From an uncultured Caryophanaceae bacterium (GTDB lineage Bacteria > Bacillota > Bacilli > Bacillales_A > Planococcaceae): DNA of 64,000 bases. The position numbers were made by a program, and so were the translations under genes. This document shows positions 4,037-20,626 of this stretch, in pieces. The notes beneath the pieces are model-generated. The model ran no database searches, was not told where the DNA came from, and saw only the letters and a list, made by a program, of their open reading frames with translations. Positions within the stretch are counted from its first letter, which is position 1; every line of letters begins with the position of its first letter. Location of the stretch: contig CAWJLH010000011.1 in NCBI GenBank assembly GCA_963843665.1, positions 33,677-97,676 on the forward strand, in the 5' to 3' direction.

Positions 4037-4915
4037 ATGCTAATCGATGGGGTATTTTCCGGAGGTGGTTTGAAAGGTTTTGCACTCGTAGGGGCGTATC
4101 AAGTATTGGAAGAAAAGGGCTATAAGTTCCAACGTGTTGCCGGTACAAGTGCAGGTGCCATTCTTGCAAGCTTTATAGCGGCGGGGTACTCTGCCAAGGA
4201 GATTGAAAAAATGTTGGATGAACTGGAGATTTCTGCTTTTCTGGATTCTCGTAAAACCATCCTTCCACTGCCGTTCATGAAATGGCTCCAACTGTATTGG
4301 CGACTTGGCATATACCAAGGTAAAGCACTGGAAAATTGGTTCTTGGAAAAATTGGCAGAGAAAGGGGTCTACTCATTTTCCGATGTGCCGGCTGGATCTT
4401 TGAAACTTGTCGCTTCCGATTTAACGAACGGCAAAATAATTGTCCTTCCCGATGACTTGGAGAGTTATGGAATTCGGCCGGATACATTCCCAATCGCCCG
4501 CGCTTTGCGCATGAGTTGCGGCATTCCGTTTTTCTTTGAACCTGTCAAGTTGCAAGTAGGTTCCGGTGATACAATCGTTGTTGACGGAGGCGTATTAAGC
4601 AATTTTCCTATGTGGTTATTTGAGGACGAAAAAGGAAAAAGGGAACGGCCGTTGCTAGGGTTAAAGCTAAGCCAAAACGGAGAAGAGCGGGAAGGATATC
4701 AAATCCGTAATGCCCTGAATTTGTTCGAAGCTCTATTTTCGACGATGAAGAACGCCCATGATGAAAGATATATTTCTAGAAAACACGAAAAAGATATCAT
4801 TTTCATCCCGGTAGAGGGGTACAGTGCGACACAATTTGATGTAGATGAAGAGACGAAAAATGCCTTGTTGGAAATCGGACGTAGCCGGACGAGACAATTT
4901 CTTAAGACATGGTAA
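4037..4915 (+). CDS. Patatin-like phospholipase (YqhO-like)
   Basis: Glycine loop SGGGLKG, nucleophile elbow GTSAG and DGG motif. Confidence 0.9.
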   Translation: MLIDGVFSGGGLKGFALVGAYQVLEEKGYKFQRVAGTSAGAILASFIAAGYSAKEIEKMLDELEISAFLDSRKTILPLPFMKWLQLYWRLGIYQGKALENWFLEKLAEKGVYSFSDVPAGSLKLVASDLTNGKIIVLPDDLESYGIRPDTFPIARALRMSCGIPFFFEPVKLQVGSGDTIVVDGGVLSNFPMWLFEDEKGKRERPLLGLKLSQNGEEREGYQIRNALNLFEALFSTMKNAHDERYISRKHEKDIIFIPVEGYSATQFDVDEETKNALLEIGRSRTRQFLKTW

Positions 4916-5015: not shown

Positions 5016-6752
5016 TTGAAGCCTATTTCTACATTTGCAACAAAAATCGTCGTCCTAGTCCTCTTAGTCGTTGGAATTACAGCAAGTGTCGGATGGTATT
5101 TTTTTGATGCGAATAAAGAAACCGCAATCTCATTTTCCAATCTGGAAAAAACAATCCAGGCCCAAAACGGTCAGCAAGTCTCTTTGAAAGAGAAGTCTGA
5201 CGGAACGGTATACTTGCAGACAAAAGACGCACTTTACGTGACACAAGTCCGTCCGCAAAGCCAGTTAGTCGAACAACTAGTGGAAAAATATAATATAACC
5301 TATAAATATTCCGACCAAAGCGGAACCGGTAGTTTGGTCATAGGCGGATTATTATTCGCGTCACTCATTACATTGTTTGTGCTCCATAAGAAAGGGAAGA
5401 TTGGCGTCGGTGCCTCTTCCATGAAAAACAGTGCATCCAAAGCAACCCCTCTACCGGATATTACGTTAAATGATATCGGTGGGCTCCCGGTGGAGATGAA
5501 AGAAGAGATTCACCAAACGTTGTCCATTGTTAAAGATCCGAAAGGTTCAATTGATCTTGGCATTAGTGCGCCCAATGGCATCTTGTTGTACGGACCGCCC
5601 GGAACGGGGAAGACTTTGCTCGCGCAAGCCATTGCACGGGAAATCGGCGCGACGTTCTTTTCCTCCAGCGGTGCATCCTTCACAGAGCTATTCGTAGGCG
5701 TCGGGGCTTCCCGCGTCCGCACCCTTTTTCAAAATGCAAGAAAGCATAAGCCTGCAGTCATTTTTATCGATGAGGTGGATGCCCTTGCGGCGAAACGGAA
5801 GACGCATGGCGGGGAAGAAGCGGAGAAAACATTGACCGAATTGCTCGTACAACTGGACGGCGGAAACGATAACGACGGCATTCTGTTCATTGCAGCGACG
5901 AATCGGAAAGATATGCTGGACGATGCATTCCTACGTCCAGGCCGGATTGATTATTCATTCCAAGTTCCATTGCCCGATACGATCGGAAGAAGAGAGATTA
6001 TCGATATTCACGCAAGAGGCAAGTTGCTAGCTGAGGATGTCGTGGCTTCCTTGGATGTTTTAGCGGAAAGCACATCCGGTTTTTCCGGTGCAGAGCTTAG
6101 CTCGCTTTTTGAAACGGCAAGCAGAAGGGCAATCCGGGATGGTCGCCAAGCGATTGATAAAAGCGATCTCGACTTTGCAATTGACCGGACAATCCTCGGA
6201 AGTACGTCCCGTTCCATGAACGACCCGGAAACAAAGCGGAGAGTGGCGATTCACGAATCGGGACACGCGCTTATCGCTGCGATCACCAAGCCTGGTTCTG
6301 TAAGGAAAGCGACCATCATTCCGCGTGGGCAGGCACTTGGCTATGTTGCACCAATTCAAAAAGAGCTTCATCTTTCGACATTCAGTGAATTATTGGACCA
6401 AGTGAGCATGATTCTTGCTGGCGGCGTCGCCGAGCGTATCTACCTCGGCGAACACAGTATTGGCGTAAGCGGAGATGTCCAACAAGCAAAGGACATTATT
6501 GAGCGTATGGTCGATACGGGGCTGCTTCAAGATGGATTTACGTTAACGTTCAATAAAGGCGAAAAAGAAGCGAAAATGCAACAGATTTTCGGAGATGCAC
6601 TTCAGAAGACAGAGCGCCTCCTACAAGAAAACACTGCTCAGTTCGAACAGCTAGTCGATGCGTTAATGCGCAAAGAAACGCTTGACGGTACAGAGGTTCA
6701 AACGATTGTTACCGGTAATGCTGTTGAATTGGAAACGGTGTGCGTTGGTTGA
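5016..6752 (+). CDS. FtsH-like membrane AAA+ zinc metalloprotease (paralog with shortened M41 domain)
   Basis: Two N-terminal TM helices, Walker A GPPGTGKT, pore motif FVGVGASRVR, Walker B IFIDEVD, SRH LRPGRID and HESGH zinc motif. TTG start. Confidence 0.85.
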   Translation: MKPISTFATKIVVLVLLVVGITASVGWYFFDANKETAISFSNLEKTIQAQNGQQVSLKEKSDGTVYLQTKDALYVTQVRPQSQLVEQLVEKYNITYKYSDQSGTGSLVIGGLLFASLITLFVLHKKGKIGVGASSMKNSASKATPLPDITLNDIGGLPVEMKEEIHQTLSIVKDPKGSIDLGISAPNGILLYGPPGTGKTLLAQAIAREIGATFFSSSGASFTELFVGVGASRVRTLFQNARKHKPAVIFIDEVDALAAKRKTHGGEEAEKTLTELLVQLDGGNDNDGILFIAATNRKDMLDDAFLRPGRIDYSFQVPLPDTIGRREIIDIHARGKLLAEDVVASLDVLAESTSGFSGAELSSLFETASRRAIRDGRQAIDKSDLDFAIDRTILGSTSRSMNDPETKRRVAIHESGHALIAAITKPGSVRKATIIPRGQALGYVAPIQKELHLSTFSELLDQVSMILAGGVAERIYLGEHSIGVSGDVQQAKDIIERMVDTGLLQDGFTLTFNKGEKEAKMQQIFGDALQKTERLLQENTAQFEQLVDALMRKETLDGTEVQTIVTGNAVELETVCVG

Positions 6753-9684: not shown

Positions 9685-10392
9685 TTAGACGCCGCGTTTG
9701 TTCCCCCATACTAGCGCATGTAGCTGAGGTAATACTTTGGCATCATTCATAATTGGCGAGTGTACTGTATGTTCAATTAACCACTCGTAGCGATTCAACA
9801 ATTTCGATACGAGTTGTGCATCATCGGTAGTTGTTGTATCATCATTTCCTGTCTGCAAAAAGAAAGGATAGGACGGATAACGGCGATGTATTTCCTCTGC
9901 AAATTTAAAATCCGTTTCATTGAAAATGACAATTTTTAAACTGGCATTCGAATTAGCCAGCTTTTTCATAAATGCATCCAGTTTTTCGAAATCCGTAACC
10001 ATTCCTGAACTCGGTGGTTTCGGAGAAAGGGTGACATCATCTATTTTCAATAACCAATCCTGCCAAAAAGTGGCTTGGGTTTCAACCGCGACTTTCCATC
10101 CTTGTGCATGACAAAGGTCAACGAGCTCTCCAATGCCTTTATGTAGGGCAGGGTTTCCTCCTGATATCGTCACATGTGAAAAAGATTGCCCCCCGATTGC
10201 TTGGAGTTTCTCAATAATTTCACTAGGCTGTTTTAAAACGCTCTTACCTGTACCATCCCATGTAAAACTGGAATCACACCACGAACAAGAATAGTCGCAG
10301 CCAGCAGTGCGGACAAACATTGTTTTTTGTCCAATAACCATTCCCTCTCCTTGAATCGTGGGACCAAATACTTCCATCACAGGAATCTTCAT
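9685..10392 (-). CDS. queE: 7-carboxy-7-deazaguanine synthase (radical SAM)
   Basis: EVFGPTIQGEG, CDYSCSWCD (CxxxCxxC) and LPQLHALVWGN.RGV. Start overlaps the queD stop (ATGA). Confidence 0.95.
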   Translation of the reverse strand: MKIPVMEVFGPTIQGEGMVIGQKTMFVRTAGCDYSCSWCDSSFTWDGTGKSVLKQPSEIIEKLQAIGGQSFSHVTISGGNPALHKGIGELVDLCHAQGWKVAVETQATFWQDWLLKIDDVTLSPKPPSSGMVTDFEKLDAFMKKLANSNASLKIVIFNETDFKFAEEIHRRYPSYPFFLQTGNDDTTTTDDAQLVSKLLNRYEWLIEHTVHSPIMNDAKVLPQLHALVWGNKRGV

Positions 10393-10814
10393 GGCCGTTC
10401 CTCCTGTCCAGGACGGTAGATGACATAGCTTGTCGGCGTTTCGCGAACAATTACTTGCAGACAAGTAGGTTTATTGTCTCTGGTCCGGAGAACATCTTGA
10501 ATGGAGGACCAAATCTGTTCTGCCAATCGTTCGGTCGTCGGGAAGTGTTCTTTAAATTCTGGATGATCGTTCAGCACAGAATGATCATATTTATCGTGTA
10601 TCAGCTTTTTAAGCTGTTTAAAATCAATCAGAAACCCGAGTGTATCCAGCTCATTTCCACCAATGGTCACATTGATATGATACGTATGGCCATGCATGAC
10701 TTGGCATTTCCCAGCTTCTTCATGCGGGATGAAATGCGCTGCTGAAAAATGCATGTCTTTGTTTAATTCAAAACGATAGGCATGCTGAACTTGCGGATAA
10801 AATTGCTGCATCAT
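10389..10814 (-). CDS. queD: 6-carboxy-5,6,7,8-tetrahydropterin synthase
   Basis: FSAAH, C..MHGHTY, DFK.LK, PTTE and VRETPTS motifs. Confidence 0.95.
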
Positions 10815-11476
10815 TTGGCGGCACCTACTGACTTTTTGGATAAGTAAGCAGAAAGACCTTCATTGCGAAGTACACAAGCAGGGCATTCACCACAACCGGT
10901 ACTCGGTACTCCGTTATAGCAGGTAAGTGTTTTTTCCTGTACAAAGTCGAGCGCATCGAGCTCATCCGCCAATGCCCAAACATCGGACTTATTAAGCCAC
11001 ATTAATGGTGTATGAATGACAAATCGTCCGTCCATCGCCAAATTCAATGTTACATTCAATGATTTAATAAAATTATCACGGCAATCGGGATAGCCGCTGA
11101 AATCCGTTTCACTCACACCCGTGATTAAGTGCCGAGCACCGATTGCATCGGCATAGACCGCTGCAAAGGAAAGGAACAGATGATTCCTGCCTGGAACGAA
11201 TGTCGACGGCAATTCGCCATCCACTTCTTTCACTGCGATATCATCACGTGTCAAGGCATTTGCAGATAGCTGGTTGATCAGATTCATGTCCAGCACTTTA
11301 AAAGAAACGCCGAGTTCATCCGCAATTTTACGAGCGCACTCGATTTCGTCCGAGTGGCGTTGCCCATAGTCAAACGTCACTGTCGCGACTTCACGGAAAT
11401 TTTTCAATGCCCAAAATAGGCATGTCGTACTGTCTTGGCCACCACTGAAGACGACCACCGCTTTTTCATTTTTCAC
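10811..11476 (-). CDS. queC: 7-cyano-7-deazaguanine synthase
   Basis: [27 protein letters not shown] and CY...CG.CPAC. GTG start chosen 9 nt after AAGGAG. Confidence 0.96.
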
Positions 11477-11489
11477 TATCAACATCTCC

Positions 11490-13870: not shown

Positions 13871-13903
13871 ATACGAGTTTATGAAAAAGTCATAAACTCG
13901 TAT
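13871..13903. terminator. Hairpin between convergent genes
   Basis: ATACGAGTTTATG-aaaaagt-CATAAACTCGTAT, 13-bp stem. Confidence 0.65.
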
Positions 13904-14712
13904 CATTTCATTTGATACGTATAATATGTATCGATTGGGATAAACAATCCGACTTTCCCATGCGTTTCATGTTCCAATGTGGCGAACACTACACCGATTA
14001 CTTGGCCGTCATGCTTCAGCACCGGACTGCCGCTATTCCCTCGATAGACAGGTGCTTTAATCATCATGACAGGTTCATCCCAATCCTTTAACAGGATTTC
14101 GCCAATAATCTTCCCTTCATTAGCAATGCCTGTAAAGCGCAGCGGATTGCCAATAAAGTAAATGGGTTCATTTTCTACAAAAGCCGGTTGGTCCGCAAGA
14201 GGTAAGAAGGGCAGATTGTTACCATCGACCTCTAATACAGCAAGGTCAATCGTCGGATAGGTTTCAACGACATTGGCGGAAAAACGACCGTCTTCCGGGA
14301 AACTGACAGATACTGTATCATTTCCTTCAACAACATGATAGTTCGTAAGTATCTTTCCTTCACTAGAGATGGAAAAGCCTGTTCCTTTGCTGTCGGCAGT
14401 CAAAATAACGACAACGGATTTTTTATAGGTGCTGATGTCTTCTTGCGTTGATAGTTGTGCGGAGGTCTTTAAAAAGTCGATGGCCGGTATGGAGTAAATT
14501 TCAAAAACTATGATGAATGTATTGACGACCATTACGATGGAAATTAGCCAAAATAACCATTTTGGAAAAGGTCGCTTCGGCTTGTTGTCCATTTTTTCGC
14601 AACCTTCTTTGGAAAGGGCCTCACGTTGGGCTTCCAACACTAACTCCTGCAGCTCTTCATCATCAATATCATTTTCGCCATGCTCGTATTGTTGTTTTTC
14701 TTCAGGATTCAT
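13903..14712 (-). CDS. Membrane-anchored trypsin-like (S1C) serine protease without PDZ domain
   Basis: One TM helix; catalytic triad motifs TNYHVV, DLAVL and GNSGSP. Confidence 0.9.
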   Translation of the reverse strand: MNPEEKQQYEHGENDIDDEELQELVLEAQREALSKEGCEKMDNKPKRPFPKWLFWLISIVMVVNTFIIVFEIYSIPAIDFLKTSAQLSTQEDISTYKKSVVVILTADSKGTGFSISSEGKILTNYHVVEGNDTVSVSFPEDGRFSANVVETYPTIDLAVLEVDGNNLPFLPLADQPAFVENEPIYFIGNPLRFTGIANEGKIIGEILLKDWDEPVMMIKAPVYRGNSGSPVLKHDGQVIGVVFATLEHETHGKVGLFIPIDTYYTYQMK

Positions 14713-14783: not shown

Positions 14784-14813
14784 GAATGCCTCCATGTCTT
14801 TTGGACATACTAG
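14784..14813 (+). promoter_or_regulatory. sigmaG-like promoter of sspL
   Basis: GAATG-N18-CATACTA, 41 bp upstream of the sspL start. Confidence 0.6.
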
Positions 14814-14854
14814 AAAATGAAAAACGAAGTGATATCTAATCGGAGGTGAATGGA

Positions 14855-14989
14855 ATGTCGAAGAAAAATAATCTCAATAAAGGAAAGAAAGCACCGAGTG
14901 TGACGCCTCAAGGAAACATGGATACGGAATTTGGCGATGATCCGAAATCGAAACTTGAAAATGCGGCGAAAAAGAAAAATACAAAATAA
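14855..14989 (+). CDS. sspL: Small acid-soluble spore protein L-like (44 aa, absent from ORF track)
   Basis: RBS GGAGGTG. MSKKNNLNKGKKAPSVTPQGNMDTEFGDDPKSKLENAAKKKNTK resembles B. subtilis SspL (VTPQG...DPK..LE..AKK.NTK). Confidence 0.75.
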   Translation: MSKKNNLNKGKKAPSVTPQGNMDTEFGDDPKSKLENAAKKKNTK

Positions 14990-15036
14990 CGGTCCATAAA
15001 AAAACCAGCCAATTTGTAAAATTGGCTGGTGCATTT

Positions 15037-15684
15037 TTACCCTATCGTTGGAAACGTAATGACCAATTGACCATCGAGATTGACCACTTCGATGATTGCA
15101 TCACCAAATAAATACGGGGTGTCATTTTTGTCTTGAGGTGTTACTTTTTCATAAACGTTTTTAACAGATAATACTTGGAACGTCACGGGGATATAACGCC
15201 CTTTACTAAGTGTTTTCATATTTCCCATTAAAAACACTTCTTTGCTAGACGCTGCAAAGCTTAAATGGCCGATTTCCTTTTGTAGATTTCCGGAAACCAA
15301 TTTGATGCCTTGCAATAGTGAAATGATGCAAAGCATGAAGTCGTTATAGGTTTCAGTAGGCAATTTTTCATAGCCTAGTTGGACGAATAATGCATTGAAG
15401 CCGTTACGCACTTCTTTGAATGAAAAGAGATCCTCAATTTTCTTTCTGTTCTTTTCTTTCTCCAAATTTTTAATGATGTGCGTACTTTCTTCAAAATAAT
15501 CTTTTACAAAGCCCGTGTTCGCTTCCCTTTGAATCATGAAATCCGTAAGTTCTCGGATCACATTTATTTCTTCTGCTTCTTTTCGAACGAACATCAAAAA
15601 ACTGAAAAGATCTTTTTCATCAAAATTCCGTTCGGAGAATTTTTTGTAATAAGTTTCAACAATCAACTGTACTTTTTTATCCAC
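15037..15684 (-). CDS. Hypothetical protein (215 aa)
   Basis: Long open frame; GTG start 9 nt after AGGAG; no motif recognised. Confidence 0.75.
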   Translation of the reverse strand: MDKKVQLIVETYYKKFSERNFDEKDLFSFLMFVRKEAEEINVIRELTDFMIQREANTGFVKDYFEESTHIIKNLEKEKNRKKIEDLFSFKEVRNGFNALFVQLGYEKLPTETYNDFMLCIISLLQGIKLVSGNLQKEIGHLSFAASSKEVFLMGNMKTLSKGRYIPVTFQVLSVKNVYEKVTPQDKNDTPYLFGDAIIEVVNLDGQLVITFPTIG

Positions 15685-15920
15685 TAATTTCCGCTCCTGA
15701 CACACTTTTCGATTTAACAAGTCCCATAAATTCAAGGTCTTTCTTTAATCATATCATGTGTTGGTATGGATATTCAAAGAAGCCAAAGGTATAATTGTAT
15801 GAAGCATGTTTGAAATCACGGGACAGCACAACGAAAGTGCTCTATAATTGTATAAGCCAAAATCAAAAGTCAGTGATCTGAAAATAGATCCTGGCTTTTA
15901 TATGGTTATGGAAAGAAGGC

Positions 15921-18900
15921 ATGGTTATGAAACATCAATCATCCGTCCAGCAAGTACTACGGTGTGGTCTGGGTGTGACGGATAACGCCCGTAAAGGGAT
16001 TACTAAATTTGCAAAAGATGAGCACGCGTTTTTTGCGATGCAAGAAGCTTTTGATTTACATATTGAAAAACGTCCAAAGAATAAGCATGGCAAGATGTCG
16101 TTTACTTTCTTTTTTGATCAGGATACGAATGGTCCGTTAGCAAAACGAGTGGAAGGCAGAGTAGCTGTCATGGATTGTGTGTACCAGCATGACGGTTTTC
16201 TGGCGACAGGATTTCATGTAAGAGGCCGGAAAGAGTTGGTCCGCACCAACCGTCGCCTACCTGTCCGCTTGAAATTCGACCTTAGGCGTAACTCAGGTGT
16301 AGAGATGCCAATTGAATTATATACAAGCCTCCGGGAACTGCCCATTGCGGAAGAGCGATCCGAGTATGTGAAGAAGCGGATTTCCAGCTGGGAAGGTTAT
16401 TTGGGCATTCAGGAAAGGAATGCGGATGTCGCGGATGTGACTGCTGTTTTTTCGCGGGCAAGTTTTAATGAGGATTTCAGTAAATTACGTCTTGTTTGCA
16501 CGGGCTTGAAGGGACAGGATTGGCAGTCGATAAAAGGATTTAGCGCCAAAGTGAAGGGCGCAGCGTATGATATCGGCAACGTCGTGAATGTGAACAGGTC
16601 CAAAAGCGTCGTTGAAATCGAACTGAATCGCAATTTGAGAGAGAGAGCCAGAAAAAAGGAATGGCGCCCTAAATCGAATGATGAGGTCGTGTTCAGCAAC
16701 TTTGCGGAGCTGAGCCAAGTTAGAAGGTTACGGAAAGGGTTCAAAGATCTGCAAGATGGACTTGCCGCAAATCCGAATTTAGAAAAGGTCCTTTTTGAAG
16801 AACGACCGACTGTCCGCATCTCGAAGAACAACAAAAAGCTCGTTTTCCATAATACATTGAACGAATATCAGCGGGAAGCGGTTACTGGTGCGATGACCGC
16901 TAATGATCTCTATGTCATTCAAGGGCCTCCTGGAACAGGGAAAACGACTGTCATTTCCGAAATTTGTCATCAGAATGTCAAAGCGGGATTGCGGACCCTC
17001 GTCGCTTCCCAAGCGAATCTGGCCGTGGACAATGCACTTGGCCGATTACTGTCCCATCAGGATATCCGGATTCTGCGTTATGGACGGACGGAGAGCATCG
17101 AAGAGGAAGGGAAAAAGTTCATCGAAGAAAATGTGGCGCTAAATTGGAAGGAGCAGACACTGGCAGCTGTCACTGAACAACTCCAGTCCCATGTAGAAAA
17201 AGAAGCGCAATTGGAAGACGATTTAAATCGTTGTAGTAGGCAAATAGCAGACCTTCAACAAGAATTGGATAGTTTAGATAAAAAGATTGAAATGAAACAA
17301 GAAGCGCAGGCAGACTATCAGCTGCATTCCAAAGCGCTTGAAACTCTCACGAATAGAATGGAAAGCAAGACGGCGAAACGGGATGAACTCGTCAAGCGGT
17401 TAGCTAAGCTAGAGCAATCTGCCGACGATGCCGCGAATGACATCCTTAGCCTCGAACAGTTCCTTCAGACCGAAAGCATCAGCCCGGAGACGATTGAGCA
17501 AATGCAAATCGTCGAACGGCAAATCGGGAAGCTTCGTTCCTCCATAGGTTATCGGTATACATTGCAACAAATCGGTGAAGCGGTCAATATGTTGGCAGCG
17601 ACTCAGCAACAAGTGGAATTAACACGAAGTAAACTGAACGATTTGCATAAATGTTTACAAGGGATACAAAGCATCACTAAATTGGACGTATTAGAAAAAC
17701 ACATCCATGATTTCGGACTAGTTCCATCATTGCCTATTGACCGGAAAATGAATGAATTGCGCCGGCTAATCACCGAAGTCAAATCCAGCATGTCCAATGG
17801 GAACTACAGTGAATGGAATAAACTGAATGACCGGTTGTCAACTGCCATTGAAAATATCGAAGAGCTATTGAGGAAGAACGGCTTTCTCAAACAGACTTTA
17901 AAAAGAAGTGTTAACCAAAAATACACATCCGTTTCAGACATTCATGGGCTCATTGATCGTGTGGGGCGATTTTTAATCGATCCATTAACAAAACATCTTT
18001 TGGAAACGAGGAGCTATTCAGCTCAAAAATATGATACTCTTGAAAAAATTGCCGATGCATTAGAATTGTTACGTGAGAGAAAACACTATGTTCAGGCGCA
18101 GGCAGCAAAATTCCAACAACAGCAGCAACTGCTTCAGCAAACAAAAACGATATATGTGGTCATCAAAGAAGAAATAATCGGGGAAGTGCAGCAAACCATT
18201 GCGATGATAGAACAAGAAAGAGATGCTTTACAGCAGGATTCGGAAGGCAAACAAATCGAGCTGAGCGACCTTCGGCAAGCGAGCTCAAAACTACTTCAAC
18301 AGCTCGGTACTGTCGACGAATCGGCTTCGATTGGTACGATGGAAGAAGAATTGGACAGCAAAGAAAAAATATGGGCCACTTACGAAGAAAAGAAAAAATC
18401 TCTTGAACAGTACGCACAGCAGTTGGAAGCGAAAAAGAATGAGGCAGAGGTGACTTCCAAGCAGCTGGAAGACGATTCAACCTTGTTTCAGGTAATCACA
18501 CAGGAAATTGAAGAATTGCGCACAGAATTGGATGAACAGGAAAAACTACTTGCGGAACTAAAGGAAATCCTAAAACAAAATCCGGAAAAAGAGCGGCAAC
18601 AGGCACTTACTACATTCAATGATCTGTCACAAAAAGAAAAGTGGTTGAATAACGAGAAAGTACGATTGCCGATTACACATGCACTTCAGCAAGAATGGTT
18701 TACTCTCCTTACTGACGCCAATGATTATGATCTCGATGAAATCCGAAAGCTTTATGTGCGGCATGCTAATGTGATCGGCACCACATGTGTCGCGTCTGCG
18801 AGACGTGATTTCATGGACGAGTATCCGACATTTGATGTCGTCATCATTGACGAGGTTTCGAAAGCGACACCACCCGAACTGCTACTTCCGATGCTAAAAG

Positions 18901-19787
18901 GGAAAAAAATCATCTTAGTAGGTGATCATCATCAATTACCTCCGCTGATTGGACAGGAGACACTTGAGGAATTCCTAGAGGAAATCGACAATCGGGAAGA
19001 AAAGAAGGAATTTGAAAAATTGTTGAATGAATCGCTGTTCGAGCGCCTTTTCAGAACATTGCCCAAGCAAAATAAGACGATGCTTGGTATCCAGTACCGT
19101 ATGCATGAAGACATCATGCAAACCATCACGCCTTTTTATTCAGAAGGGAATTACCGTCTCCAATGTGGATTGACGGATTCCGATGCTGTACGTGATCACT
19201 TGTTGGATTCCCGCTATGTGCAAAGAAAGGACCATCTGCTGTGGTTCGATATGCCGAATAAACCGGATTATTTCGAGGAAAAGATGAAAGGCGGTACCAG
19301 CCGATTCAATCAGGCTGAGCTGACAATGGTTGAAAATCTTCTAATGGATTTGGATTCCGCTACCGCCAAGGCGAAGACAGAAGGTAGGATGGGGCAGGAA
19401 GACAAAAAGAGCGTCGGTGTCATCAGCTTTTACGGAGAGCAAGTGAAGCGAATAGACCGGTTAATTCAACAGGAATTGAATCCCCAGCATTTACATTGCA
19501 GAACGGGTTCAGTGGACAAGTTTCAAGGGATGGAAATGGACGTCATCCTATTGAGTTTCGTACGGAATCACAAGGAGAAAGGTGGCGACATCGGCTTCGC
19601 AAAAGACTATAGACGTTTGAATGTCGCCTTGTCACGCGCGCGTGAACTGCTCATTATTGTAGGAAGTTCGGAAATGTTTACCATAAGGACGAAACACCCG
19701 AGTTCGCGGGAAATGTATGGGCGTCTGTTAATGGATATTAAAAAGAAAAATGGCTTTCGGGATCATGAAGGCCATGTACTAACGTAA
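15921..19787 (+). CDS. Upf1/DNA2-like superfamily 1 helicase (AAA_11/AAA_12) with large coiled-coil insertion
   Basis: Q-motif LNEYQREAV, QGPPGTGKT, SQANLAVDN, IIDEVSKA, LVGDHHQLPP, QYRMH, VDKFQGME and RLNVALSRAR. Confidence 0.92.
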   Translation: MVMKHQSSVQQVLRCGLGVTDNARKGITKFAKDEHAFFAMQEAFDLHIEKRPKNKHGKMSFTFFFDQDTNGPLAKRVEGRVAVMDCVYQHDGFLATGFHVRGRKELVRTNRRLPVRLKFDLRRNSGVEMPIELYTSLRELPIAEERSEYVKKRISSWEGYLGIQERNADVADVTAVFSRASFNEDFSKLRLVCTGLKGQDWQSIKGFSAKVKGAAYDIGNVVNVNRSKSVVEIELNRNLRERARKKEWRPKSNDEVVFSNFAELSQVRRLRKGFKDLQDGLAANPNLEKVLFEERPTVRISKNNKKLVFHNTLNEYQREAVTGAMTANDLYVIQGPPGTGKTTVISEICHQNVKAGLRTLVASQANLAVDNALGRLLSHQDIRILRYGRTESIEEEGKKFIEENVALNWKEQTLAAVTEQLQSHVEKEAQLEDDLNRCSRQIADLQQELDSLDKKIEMKQEAQADYQLHSKALETLTNRMESKTAKRDELVKRLAKLEQSADDAANDILSLEQFLQTESISPETIEQMQIVERQIGKLRSSIGYRYTLQQIGEAVNMLAATQQQVELTRSKLNDLHKCLQGIQSITKLDVLEKHIHDFGLVPSLPIDRKMNELRRLITEVKSSMSNGNYSEWNKLNDRLSTAIENIEELLRKNGFLKQTLKRSVNQKYTSVSDIHGLIDRVGRFLIDPLTKHLLETRSYSAQKYDTLEKIADALELLRERKHYVQAQAAKFQQQQQLLQQTKTIYVVIKEEIIGEVQQTIAMIEQERDALQQDSEGKQIELSDLRQASSKLLQQLGTVDESASIGTMEEELDSKEKIWATYEEKKKSLEQYAQQLEAKKNEAEVTSKQLEDDSTLFQVITQEIEELRTELDEQEKLLAELKEILKQNPEKERQQALTTFNDLSQKEKWLNNEKVRLPITHALQQEWFTLLTDANDYDLDEIRKLYVRHANVIGTTCVASARRDFMDEYPTFDVVIIDEVSKATPPELLLPMLKGKKIILVGDHHQLPPLIGQETLEEFLEEIDNREEKKEFEKLLNESLFERLFRTLPKQNKTMLGIQYRMHEDIMQTITPFYSEGNYRLQCGLTDSDAVRDHLLDSRYVQRKDHLLWFDMPNKPDYFEEKMKGGTSRFNQAELTMVENLLMDLDSATAKAKTEGRMGQEDKKSVGVISFYGEQVKRIDRLIQQELNPQHLHCRTGSVDKFQGMEMDVILLSFVRNHKEKGGDIGFAKDYRRLNVALSRARELLIIVGSSEMFTIRTKHPSSREMYGRLLMDIKKKNGFRDHEGHVLT

Positions 19788-19805
19788 TACGGCAGGGGGG
19801 GTAGA

Positions 19806-20570
19806 ATGGATAAGCTAAAAAGAAAGTTAACACAAGAGCTGCAACAGGATTTTAATGTGAAAATCTTGGATTCCATGTCATGGAGCTTGCCTGTCCATTC
19901 GATTGAAATTGCATTTCAGACAGTGATGCGGACGAAAATGGATATTCTAATGAAAATGATGCTGATTTCTTTTCAAAAAGGGAAGATATCGACTGCTGAA
20001 GTGCTTAGCGAATTGCTCCTGGTTGAACCGCTTTTTATCGAAGATTTAATCCGTAAAATGACAAGTGCCCGGATGATTGAAAAAAACGATGGGCATTTCA
20101 ATTTGACAGGCACAGGCATGCAACAGCTTGAATCAGGGATTTTTATACATGAACCGGAAAACGATATGAAAAATGCGCTCTATAGCCCATGCCACCAGTC
20201 ATTTCTGCACGGAAACCCAGAGAGCTTAGCAGCTGAAGTGAAAGAAGTGTATCGCCATCACGCTGAATTTAATGACGATTGGAAGGTTGAACTCGTTGAG
20301 AAAACCGATTTACTGAATGCGCTTCAATCATTGGGCGTGGATTCTGCGGAGGGGAATGTGCAGATTGTAATTGCCGACATTGTCTCGGCAACTGCCGTTC
20401 AAACTGATTGGGTGCCTTGCATTGAATTCCGGTTGTATAACGAAGCGGAAGACTTACTTTTCGCACGCGTTTGGAATACGTTGACGGAGCAATGGGATGA
20501 AAGGCTTGAAAGCCAACTAAATGACAAAGAACGGAAAGTGTGGCGTGAGAATTACTTGGAAAAAGAATAA
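19806..20570 (+). CDS. Hypothetical protein with predicted N-terminal winged-helix (helicase partner)
   Basis: Starts 18 bp after the helicase stop with RBS GGGGGG. Segment EVLSELLLVEPLFIEDLIRKM...MIEK.DG.FNLT..G looks like a winged helix. Confidence 0.75.
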   Translation: MDKLKRKLTQELQQDFNVKILDSMSWSLPVHSIEIAFQTVMRTKMDILMKMMLISFQKGKISTAEVLSELLLVEPLFIEDLIRKMTSARMIEKNDGHFNLTGTGMQQLESGIFIHEPENDMKNALYSPCHQSFLHGNPESLAAEVKEVYRHHAEFNDDWKVELVEKTDLLNALQSLGVDSAEGNVQIVIADIVSATAVQTDWVPCIEFRLYNEAEDLLFARVWNTLTEQWDERLESQLNDKERKVWRENYLEKE

Positions 20571-20588: not shown

Positions 20589-20626
20589 AGCCCCCTTAAA
20601 CTAGTAGGTTTAAGGGGGCTTCTTTG
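20589..20626 (+). terminator. Intrinsic terminator closing the helicase operon
   Basis: AGCCCCCTTAAAC-tagtag-GTTTAAGGGGGCT followed by TCTTTG. Confidence 0.8.

Follow-up and report, generated by a model that had tools for sequence, protein, structure and literature searches.

A helicase and a stand-alone MkoB N-terminal domain: a probable effector-less derivative of two-gene Mokosh in a Caryophanaceae bacterium

The window analysed here is a stretch of 64,000 nucleotides (nt) from an uncultured Caryophanaceae bacterium (contig CAWJLH010000011.1, positions 33,677 to 97,676). It carries a two-gene operon in which a large Upf1-type helicase is followed by a partner protein of 254 amino acids (aa), below called P254. 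A sequence-only reading of this locus had described the pair as a candidate Mokosh-related defence system, possibly an effector-less variant, that lacks both the kinase and the PLD nuclease. We find that the two proteins are homologous to Mokosh components, while the genes sit at ordinary chromosomal sites.

The features of the locus are collected in Table 1. The two genes form a closed unit, since the upstream gene (15037..15735, reverse strand) is divergent from the helicase and has its own bidirectional terminator at 15004-15030, and since the gene downstream of the operon encodes an HpaB-type hydroxylase. The open reading frames (ORFs), the short gap between them, the terminator hairpin and the flanking genes all agree with the earlier description of a closed pair ending in a strong terminator. 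In homologous loci the spacing between helicase and partner ranges from -38 nt (an overlap) to +22 nt (a gap). The G+C of the operon is 0.43-0.45, near that of the surrounding window.

Table 1. Positions and basis of the features of the helicase-partner operon (window coordinates).
Feature	Position	Strand	Basis or remark
Two sigma-70-type promoter-like sites	15767..15848	+	Consensus scan; divergent intergenic region 5' of the helicase
5'-leader stem-loop followed by a U-run, AAAAGTCAGTGATCT-GAAAAT-AGATCCTGGCTTTT	15865..15899	+	RNA fold -21.3 kcal/mol, z = -3.7
Helicase ORF, MkoA-like, Upf1-family superfamily 1B (SF1B)	15921..19787	+	1288 aa as longest ORF; likelier start at ATG 15927, giving 1286 aa
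Basic N-terminal region of the helicase, residues 1-312	15921..16856	+	Isoelectric point (pI) 9.9; modelled as two beta-barrels with a long connecting helix
Motif I, Walker A GPPGTGKT	16923..16946	+	Motif scan
Insertion of ~500 aa between motifs Ia and II, predicted coiled coil	17193..18695	+	Composition and weak coiled-coil matches
Motifs II (DEVS), III, IV, V and VI	18840..19643	+	Motif scan; AAA_12 at residues 1035-1250
Spacer between the genes	19788..19805	+	18 nt; holds a G-rich ribosome-binding site
Partner ORF (P254)	19806..20570	+	254 aa; MkoB N-terminal domain without PLD nuclease
Winged helix-turn-helix in P254, residues ~46-112	19941..20141	+	AlphaFold2 model and Foldseek
Intrinsic terminator closing the operon	20589..20620	+	14-bp stem with 7 G-C pairs; T-rich tail

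The helicase matches the Pfam families AAA_11 (6e-39; residues 313-516 and a second stretch) and AAA_12 (8e-45). All catalytic motifs had been said to be intact, and each of them could be located: motifs I (residues 335-342), Ia (360-373), II (974-982), III (999-1008), IV (1057-1062), V (1195-1207) and VI (1233-1241). With these seven motifs in two RecA-like domains the protein falls within the Upf1-like SF1B helicases. By sequence, the solved structures closest to it are IGHMBP2 (1.5e-36), DNA2 (2e-30) and UPF1 (5e-28), and SEN1 and SETX are also matched.

Two parts of the helicase lie outside this core. Ahead of it, the N-terminal region was modelled by AlphaFold2 with a mean predicted local distance difference test score (pLDDT) of 81, as two beta-barrels and a long helix. 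Foldseek gives this model a weak, non-significant likeness to the barrel and stalk of Upf1, SETX and Sen1; with all E-values above 0.01, we dropped any finer fold assignment than beta-barrels plus a stalk-like helix. Among homologues the mean pairwise identity of the 312 N-terminal residues is 57%, and residues 113-312 are common to cyanobacterial MkoA-like proteins. The other part is the long insertion, which lies within the first RecA domain, after motif Ia (residue 373) and before motif II (residue 974). It is poor in proline and glycine (~3% together), E, K, Q, L, A and R make up 57-62% of it, and it gives weak coiled-coil matches to SMC, Rad50, JetC and LmuB models. Its length is kept in all homologues. 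Its two arms are 23-24% identical among homologues, against 34% in the middle (residues 586-720, window 17676-18080) and 73-79% in the RecA core. An ATPase of the SMC/Rad50 type was rejected, since the ATPase is SF1 and the matches to SMC, Rad50 and JetC are weak (4e-8 to 0.01) and confined to the coiled coil. The PLuB, ProA and Hhe helicase families were rejected as well, their NCBIfam matches being far under the cut-off.

Among defence families, MkoA of Mokosh is by far the best match of the helicase (PADLOC models PDLC03920, 1.6e-112, and PDLC03921, 5e-98). The match is limited to the helicase core, where residues 313-495 and 879-1275 align with model positions 617-1099 of 1112. When the protein was scanned with PADLOC in four pieces, the N-terminal region and the coiled coil matched no defence model. 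In agreement with the earlier reading no kinase is visible: there is no kinase Pfam match at E <= 0.1 and no HRD motif in the helicase, and its one DFG tripeptide falls inside the coiled coil. Mokosh type II (MkoC) was rejected, as there are two genes here, the MkoC match (3e-37) covers the helicase motifs only, and PLD is missing.

Relatives with the same overall build do exist in complete Mokosh pairs. Residues 15-1284 of the window helicase align at 37% identity with a metagenomic helicase of 1325 aa (locus L025), which is followed after 16 nt by a 604-aa MkoB with a PLDc_2 domain (P0298); a resolvase gene adjoins this pair. Further, a tblastn search of plasmids with the helicase gave 368 records, all below 60% identity. 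Many of these are annotated as 'serine/threonine protein kinase' and represent the classical type I form of MkoA. The best three are cyanobacterial; they have residues 113-424 in common with the window helicase and carry a long insert at the same place. The helicases of the complete, PLD-bearing pairs L025, L029 and L030 show no kinase domain in precomputed Pfam listings either, so the Ser/Thr kinase is not universal in complete pairs. Judged by these alignments, the window helicase belongs to a kinase-less, coiled-coil-bearing lineage of MkoA.

The affiliation of the partner is less direct. When scanned itself, P254 matches no Pfam, NCBIfam or PADLOC model significantly, including the MkoB models. 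We therefore turned to a profile of 37 P254 homologues, searched against 1.84 billion representative proteins, with E-values that are library-wide. Of the 91 matches about 40 are clusters of short proteins, and about 20 are longer proteins of 511-619 aa whose N-terminal residues ~20-265 align with the whole of P254. The E-values of the long proteins are 2e-48, 7e-48 and 6e-33 (P0298, P0299 and P0306), down to 1e-4. Nine of the ten long proteins that were scanned carry PLDc_2 at about residues 310-450 and match PADLOC MkoB at 1e-21 to 5e-37; the tenth (430 aa) matches MkoB at 3e-9 and has no PLDc_2. In addition, BLASTP aligns P254 residues 8-250 with residues 19-264 of P0298 at 31% identity (E = 2e-35). 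The residues that are invariant in P254 (W26, D46, K50, R150, E207, D216, R221-W-N, W230-D and W246) are kept in P0298. The partner thus resembles MkoB N-termini along its full length. An hhalign comparison of the P254 profile with single cyanobacterial MkoB-like proteins had given E-values of 0.001 and 0.03 at a probability of at most 20%, and is superseded by the library-wide search.

No trace of the nuclease was found. Neither protein of the pair has an HxK(x4)D motif, as the earlier reading had noted for the HxK motif of PLD, and no PLDc_2 domain is matched. A tblastn search with five MkoB C-terminal halves returned nothing at E <= 1 in the 64-kb window or in the loci with a short partner, and a window-wide scan gave no match to MkoB or PLD in the 64 kb. 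Given the whole-length homology, the kept invariant residues and the missing PLD motif and remnant, P254 is, by sequence comparison, the N-terminal domain of MkoB without its nuclease. In a neighbour-joining tree, calculated without bootstrap and with its basal order unsettled, most short forms fall in one clade of about 38 clusters at 50% identity, and the PLD-bearing P0298, P0299 and P0306 are placed near the base.

The AlphaFold2 model of P254, built from 37 sequences, has a pLDDT of 88.9. It runs from an N-terminal helix through a long beta-hairpin and a winged helix to strands that complete the sheet and a C-terminal helix. The winged helix is matched by Foldseek to MotA, MarR, CggR and MntR over 60-75 columns at a root-mean-square deviation of ~2 Å, so that the winged-helix-like segment suspected from the sequence is borne out by the model. 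Only the winged helix is matched: the beta-sheet module has no structural counterpart by Foldseek in the Protein Data Bank (PDB) or the viral libraries, and a profile sequence search of P254 against the PDB gave no match. P254 is acidic, with a pI of 4.9 and a net charge of about -16. The same holds for its relatives, with pI values of 4.4-5.2 in the short partners and 4.6-5.5 in the N-terminal domains of MkoB.

The relatives that keep an effector show what this domain is joined to elsewhere. PLD is present at L024, L025, L029 and L030, and DarT at L023. At L023, on plasmid pC052_C of Nostoc sp. C052 (5614-12362), a BREX-1 operon contains an MkoA-like helicase between pglX and pglZ. The N-terminus of the next gene product matches MkoB (~1e-9) and its C-terminus is a DarT ssDNA ADP-ribosyltransferase; the third gene encodes an ADP-ribosylglycohydrolase (DarG-like). 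In Cyanobacterium sp. HL-69 the helicase follows hsdR, amid toxin-antitoxin genes, and precedes a 594-aa MkoB with PLDc_2 (PADLOC 1.3e-30). The neighbours of the effector-keeping relatives tend to be BREX, restriction-modification, toxin-antitoxin, resolvase or transposase genes, and these relatives form singleton clusters. Across the partners compared, the MkoB N-terminal domain is constant, and what it is joined to is PLD, DarT or nothing.

These kinase-less MkoA-like proteins (L023, L024, L025, L029 and L030) resemble the window pair in the long insert between motifs Ia and II and in the acidic winged-helix domain at the start of the partner. Alignment with the window helicase is full-length for L025 and covers the core and the pre-helicase region for the others. 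They differ in that their partners carry PLD or DarT, and in that several lie beside BREX, hsdR, toxin-antitoxin, resolvase or transposase genes. A separate name for this kinase-less, coiled-coil-bearing group was not found in the papers compared.

With Mokosh type I as such the window pair shares the order of helicase and partner, the Upf1/COG1112 core that matches MkoA and the partner that is akin to the MkoB N-terminal domain. The nearest complete relatives (L025, L029, L030 and L024) have the same kinase-less type of helicase with a long insertion. However, the window partner lacks the PLD nuclease, which is the effector of the system, and defence by Mokosh in E. coli requires both the ATP site of the helicase and the PLD active site (Millman et al. 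2022, 10.1101/2022.05.11.491447). Further, the window helicase has no Ser/Thr kinase, and its N-terminal region and coiled coil are outside the MkoA models. The pair is also chromosomal, with inheritance that looks vertical, and lies outside any defence island. Since the PLD nuclease and the kinase of the system as first described are both missing, the locus should not be filed as a Mokosh system.

Other helicases offer looser comparisons. The eukaryotic Upf1-like proteins (UPF1, IGHMBP2, DNA2, SEN1/SETX and MOV10L1) share all seven motifs and a weak resemblance in barrel and stalk. In contrast to them, the window helicase is bacterial, has a dedicated small partner and lacks the CH, R3H and nuclease domains, and its insert of ~500 aa far exceeds the 1B and 1C inserts of Upf1. 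Hachiman (HamA nuclease and HamB helicase) and other nuclease-NTPase defence pairs are likewise two-gene units of a helicase and a small partner, and the helicase of Hachiman is described as restraining the partner until a nucleic-acid signal is sensed (PMC12278908). Hachiman may serve as a working analogy for the coupling of the MkoB N-terminal domain to MkoA. HamB, however, belongs to superfamily 2, and P254 lacks a nuclease fold and matches HamA neither in sequence nor in fold.

Next, we consider where the pair occurs. A search with the helicase found at least 120 full-length relatives of 1257-1304 aa; apart from the window's own 100% copy among them, their identity is 50-71%. Among the matches listed are many Sporosarcina and Psychrobacillus species, Filibacter and one Lederbergia record. 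A survey with the N-terminal 312 aa of the helicase was dropped in favour of this full-length query, as it returned only 23 fragmentary genes. For P254, 341 homologues were found, nearly all of ~250 aa; the named ones belong to Sporosarcina, Filibacter, Psychrobacillus and a few 'Bacillus sp.' strains. Short partners are also present in Rummeliibacillus and 'Lysinibacillus' alkalisoli.

Helicase and partner stand side by side in 19 loci, which come from Sporosarcina, Psychrobacillus, Rummeliibacillus and relatives. The neighbours are transporters, a pseudouridine synthase, a HAD hydrolase, proline dehydrogenase, YflT stress proteins, ABC systems and metabolic genes, with synteny blocks common to species groups. 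PADLOC was run on 150 neighbouring ORFs and no recognised defence system was found near the pair. The matches obtained are to generic domains (ABC-type ATPases, a trypsin-like protease, patatin and WYL), and the one strong match is to the uncharacterised candidate family PDC-S04 (7.6e-53). None of the 19 short-form loci has a defence-island or mobile-element context, and no relatives of the partner were found on plasmids, phages or viral contigs. The context is that of an ordinary chromosome.

In two species the genes are unlinked although both are of full length. In Sporosarcina sp. NPDC096371 (L006/L018) one contig carries both, with ~66 kb between partner and helicase; the two genes of S. 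beigongshangi (L008/L031) are on different contigs. The unlinked partners sit between a gene for a MalK-like ABC ATPase and one for a trypsin-like peptidase. In a third species, YIM B06819, the arrangement on the helicase side matches that of these two. An enrichment of homologues in defence islands, which the sequence-only reading had put forward as a check, is thus not seen, and its proposal of a defence system lacks support from these partly syntenic sites, spread over several genera.

The two genes are under purifying selection and co-diverge. In pairs with unsaturated dS of 0.27-1.0, the helicase has a ratio of nonsynonymous to synonymous substitution rates (dN/dS) of 0.12-0.14, and the partner one of 0.08-0.26. 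The pairwise identities of helicase and partner correlate with r = 0.985 over 171 pairs. Further, more than 100 sequences of the helicase and more than 300 of the partner have intact reading frames and invariant motifs. As both genes are conserved in this way and the nuclease has been lost, the pair would have to do something useful without cutting nucleic acids itself.

We consider it likely that the locus is an effector-less, kinase-less and probably exapted derivative of a two-gene (type I-like) Mokosh system. Of the earlier proposal of an effector-less Mokosh variant, the homology stands, with an MkoA core and an MkoB N-terminal domain without PLD, but the role in defence finds no support in the context. 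Homology traces both genes back to a two-gene Mokosh that was kinase-less and carried the coiled coil. The effector part of MkoB would have disappeared in one event or in a few, after which the truncated pair may have spread vertically through Sporosarcina, Psychrobacillus, Filibacter, Rummeliibacillus and relatives, kept by purifying selection in ordinary chromosomal positions. Today the pair more likely serves in fixed, lineage-specific nucleic-acid surveillance or maintenance than as a classical mobile anti-phage system.

Several points weigh against this interpretation. P254 reaches MkoB through intermediates and by no direct model match, although each step is highly significant. The occurrence of the pair is known among the matches listed, which is short of proving it a core gene of the clade, and the flanking genes differ between many loci, so the pair is not at one fixed position. 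Some PLD-bearing relatives (B. smithii, L030) are also found amid metabolic genes, and context alone can therefore not separate defence from non-defence. The adaptor role and docking site suggested below for the partner are deduced from conservation and charge, and the substrate of the helicase could be RNA or DNA.

The pair could also still be at work against phages. Its helicase activity might be enough to abort infection, for instance if it strips or blocks phage RNA or replication intermediates, or the pair might use a nuclease that is encoded elsewhere. Such a role would fit the homology of both genes to Mokosh components, the intact ATPase and helicase motifs under purifying selection, and the close architectural relatives that lie inside BREX-1 or beside hsdR and toxin-antitoxin genes. 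Chromosomally fixed defence genes are, in general, known. Nevertheless we regard continued defence as rather unlikely. The PLD active site is needed for Mokosh defence in E. coli, which makes a simple retention of the original mechanism improbable. Defence-island and mobile contexts are missing in the 19 loci, and the searches of plasmids, phages and viral contigs yielded no copy of the partner. In addition, the genes co-diverge in a genus-wide pattern that looks vertical, and their unlinking in two species is unusual for defence operons.

The remaining alternatives concern the partner alone or deny the pair a function. P254 has a winged helix, is kept as a gene of its own where it is no longer linked to the helicase, and gives weak Rrf2 and HTH_45 matches below the cut-off; some of its homologues are annotated by the Joint Genome Institute as 'DNA-binding IscR family transcriptional regulator'. 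It could thus be an ordinary winged-helix regulator of the IscR/Rrf2 kind that controls the helicase or neighbouring genes. This is very improbable, since the Rrf2 match reaches 16.9 bits (cut-off 30), the TIGR00738 match has 18.9 bits (cut-off 73.3) and lies outside the winged helix, and the cluster-binding cysteines of Rrf2 are missing. Further, the whole protein, and not the helix-turn-helix alone, is homologous to the MkoB domain, it is strongly acidic, and it co-diverges with the helicase. Membership in Rrf2/IscR or MarR was accordingly rejected: the profiles stay under the curated cut-offs, and what is shared is the common, generic winged-helix fold. The loss of the effector domain would also be expected of a decaying Mokosh remnant, or the two genes could be adjacent by chance, in either case with no present function. 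This we find scarcely credible in view of the low dN/dS of both genes, the intact frames and invariant motifs, the diversification of the short forms into about 38 clusters and the adjacency kept in 19 loci.

If the pair is an exapted Mokosh derivative, the 254-aa protein may act as an adaptor that docks on the helicase, plausibly at the basic N-terminal region or at the middle of the coiled coil. An adaptor role for the MkoB N-terminal domain is suggested by its being the constant part beside PLD, DarT or nothing, and by its consistently acidic character (pI 4.4-5.5) against the basic N-terminus of the helicase. It is further suggested by the fact that nuclease-NTPase defence systems generally form complexes, although Mokosh type I was not purifiable in the study that describes this (10.1101/2025.07.10.664194). 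The complex would translocate 5'->3' on RNA, DNA or hybrids, driven by ATP, and remodel or clear its substrate without cutting it. Any cleavage would be supplied by a factor encoded elsewhere; the truncated pair may thus act by its helicase activity alone or together with such a factor. A more specific version is that Mokosh shed its nuclease and was exapted as a chromosomal, vertically inherited machine for the surveillance or remodelling of nucleic acids, in which the acidic MkoB domain is a regulatory lid or nucleic-acid mimic on the basic helicase N-terminus and a universal adaptor for interchangeable effectors (PLD, DarT or none). We regard this version as possible but somewhat doubtful. 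An exapted pair of this kind would be a bacterial counterpart of nuclease-free helicase complexes of the Upf1/MOV10 type.

Some features of the operon bear on its expression. The helicase more probably starts at ATG 15927. This codon has a spacing of 7 nt from the ribosome-binding site GAAAGAAGG, whose last position is 15919; it aligns with the start position of homologues, and the resulting 1286 aa is the length of the database copy P0144. The two promoter-like sites, which are consensus matches only, read TGGATA-17-TATAAT and GGGACA-17-TATAAT (15767-15795 and 15820-15848), and the -10 box ACTATAAT is kept in several homologous loci. A conserved stem-loop in the leader sits between the -10 box and the ribosome-binding site of the helicase. 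It is present in nine loci (the window, L006-L010 and L012-L014) and absent from loci of the L001-L005 type. In three of its 13 pairs both sides have changed and the pairing is preserved, and a scan of operon and leader against Rfam gave no family match. The stem-loop could be a transcription attenuator or a 5' stabiliser of the mRNA.

A few neighbouring genes recur at homologous loci. The 232-aa gene divergent from the helicase has no Pfam or PADLOC match. It is found at the same position in L006, L007, L008 and L013 (67-72% identity), including loci without an adjacent partner. Being kept in five loci only and without family match, it was rejected as a component of the system. A 74-aa ORF next to it (14810-15034, reverse strand) is of low complexity, overlaps the bidirectional terminator at 15004-15030 and is probably spurious. 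A Trypsin_2-family peptidase recurs near the partner in the window and in L016, L017, L018 and L031, within ~1.5 kb of it in several otherwise different arrangements; most loci are without it. These genes are on the reverse strand (window 13903-14712; L016 12238-13065; L018 10799-11596; L031 7846-8649). The peptidase probably represents leftover ancestral synteny, and as most loci lack it we set it aside as a trans-acting effector of the pair.

Further away, a patatin-like phospholipase (4037-4915, forward strand) is followed by a 578-aa protein with Walker A and HExGH motifs (5016-6752, forward strand; FtsH-like). These two are probably the source of the PADLOC matches 'Effector phospholipase' and 'IetA/TRIP13' in the window, which look like generic domains rather than a defence system. 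A patatin gene is also found near the pair in L020 and L021. In L020, L021 and L022 (S. luteola, S. newyorkensis and Lederbergia) YflT-family general-stress and DUF2382 genes flank the pair, which hints at a stress-related neighbourhood in this sub-lineage. About 4.4 kb upstream of the operon (9685-11485, reverse strand) lies a queuosine-precursor cluster with matches to QueC, a radical-SAM protein (QueE-like) and PTPS (QueD-like). This cluster is ordinary metabolism and unrelated to the pair. The 64-kb window contains no tRNA gene.

Mokosh is described as among the more prevalent defence systems, and its mechanism is not resolved in the literature that we found. In an incomplete full-text search of the literature, no description was found of an effector-less Mokosh lineage or of the MkoB N-terminal domain as a separate module. 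PADLOC v2 finds no complete Mokosh pair at loci such as this one because the partner misses its MkoB models. The locus represents a natural separation-of-function variant, in which the part that senses and drives, made up of the helicase and the MkoB N-terminal domain, is kept under selection without the effector. The N-terminal ~260 residues of MkoB are thereby defined as an independent conserved module, and the PLD and DarT versions among relatives suggest that this module couples interchangeable effectors to the helicase. The locus is, in addition, a candidate case of a defence system that has turned into a fixed chromosomal gene pair, and it bears on how immune helicases, relatives of Upf1, MOV10L1 and ZNFX1, may move between immune and housekeeping roles.

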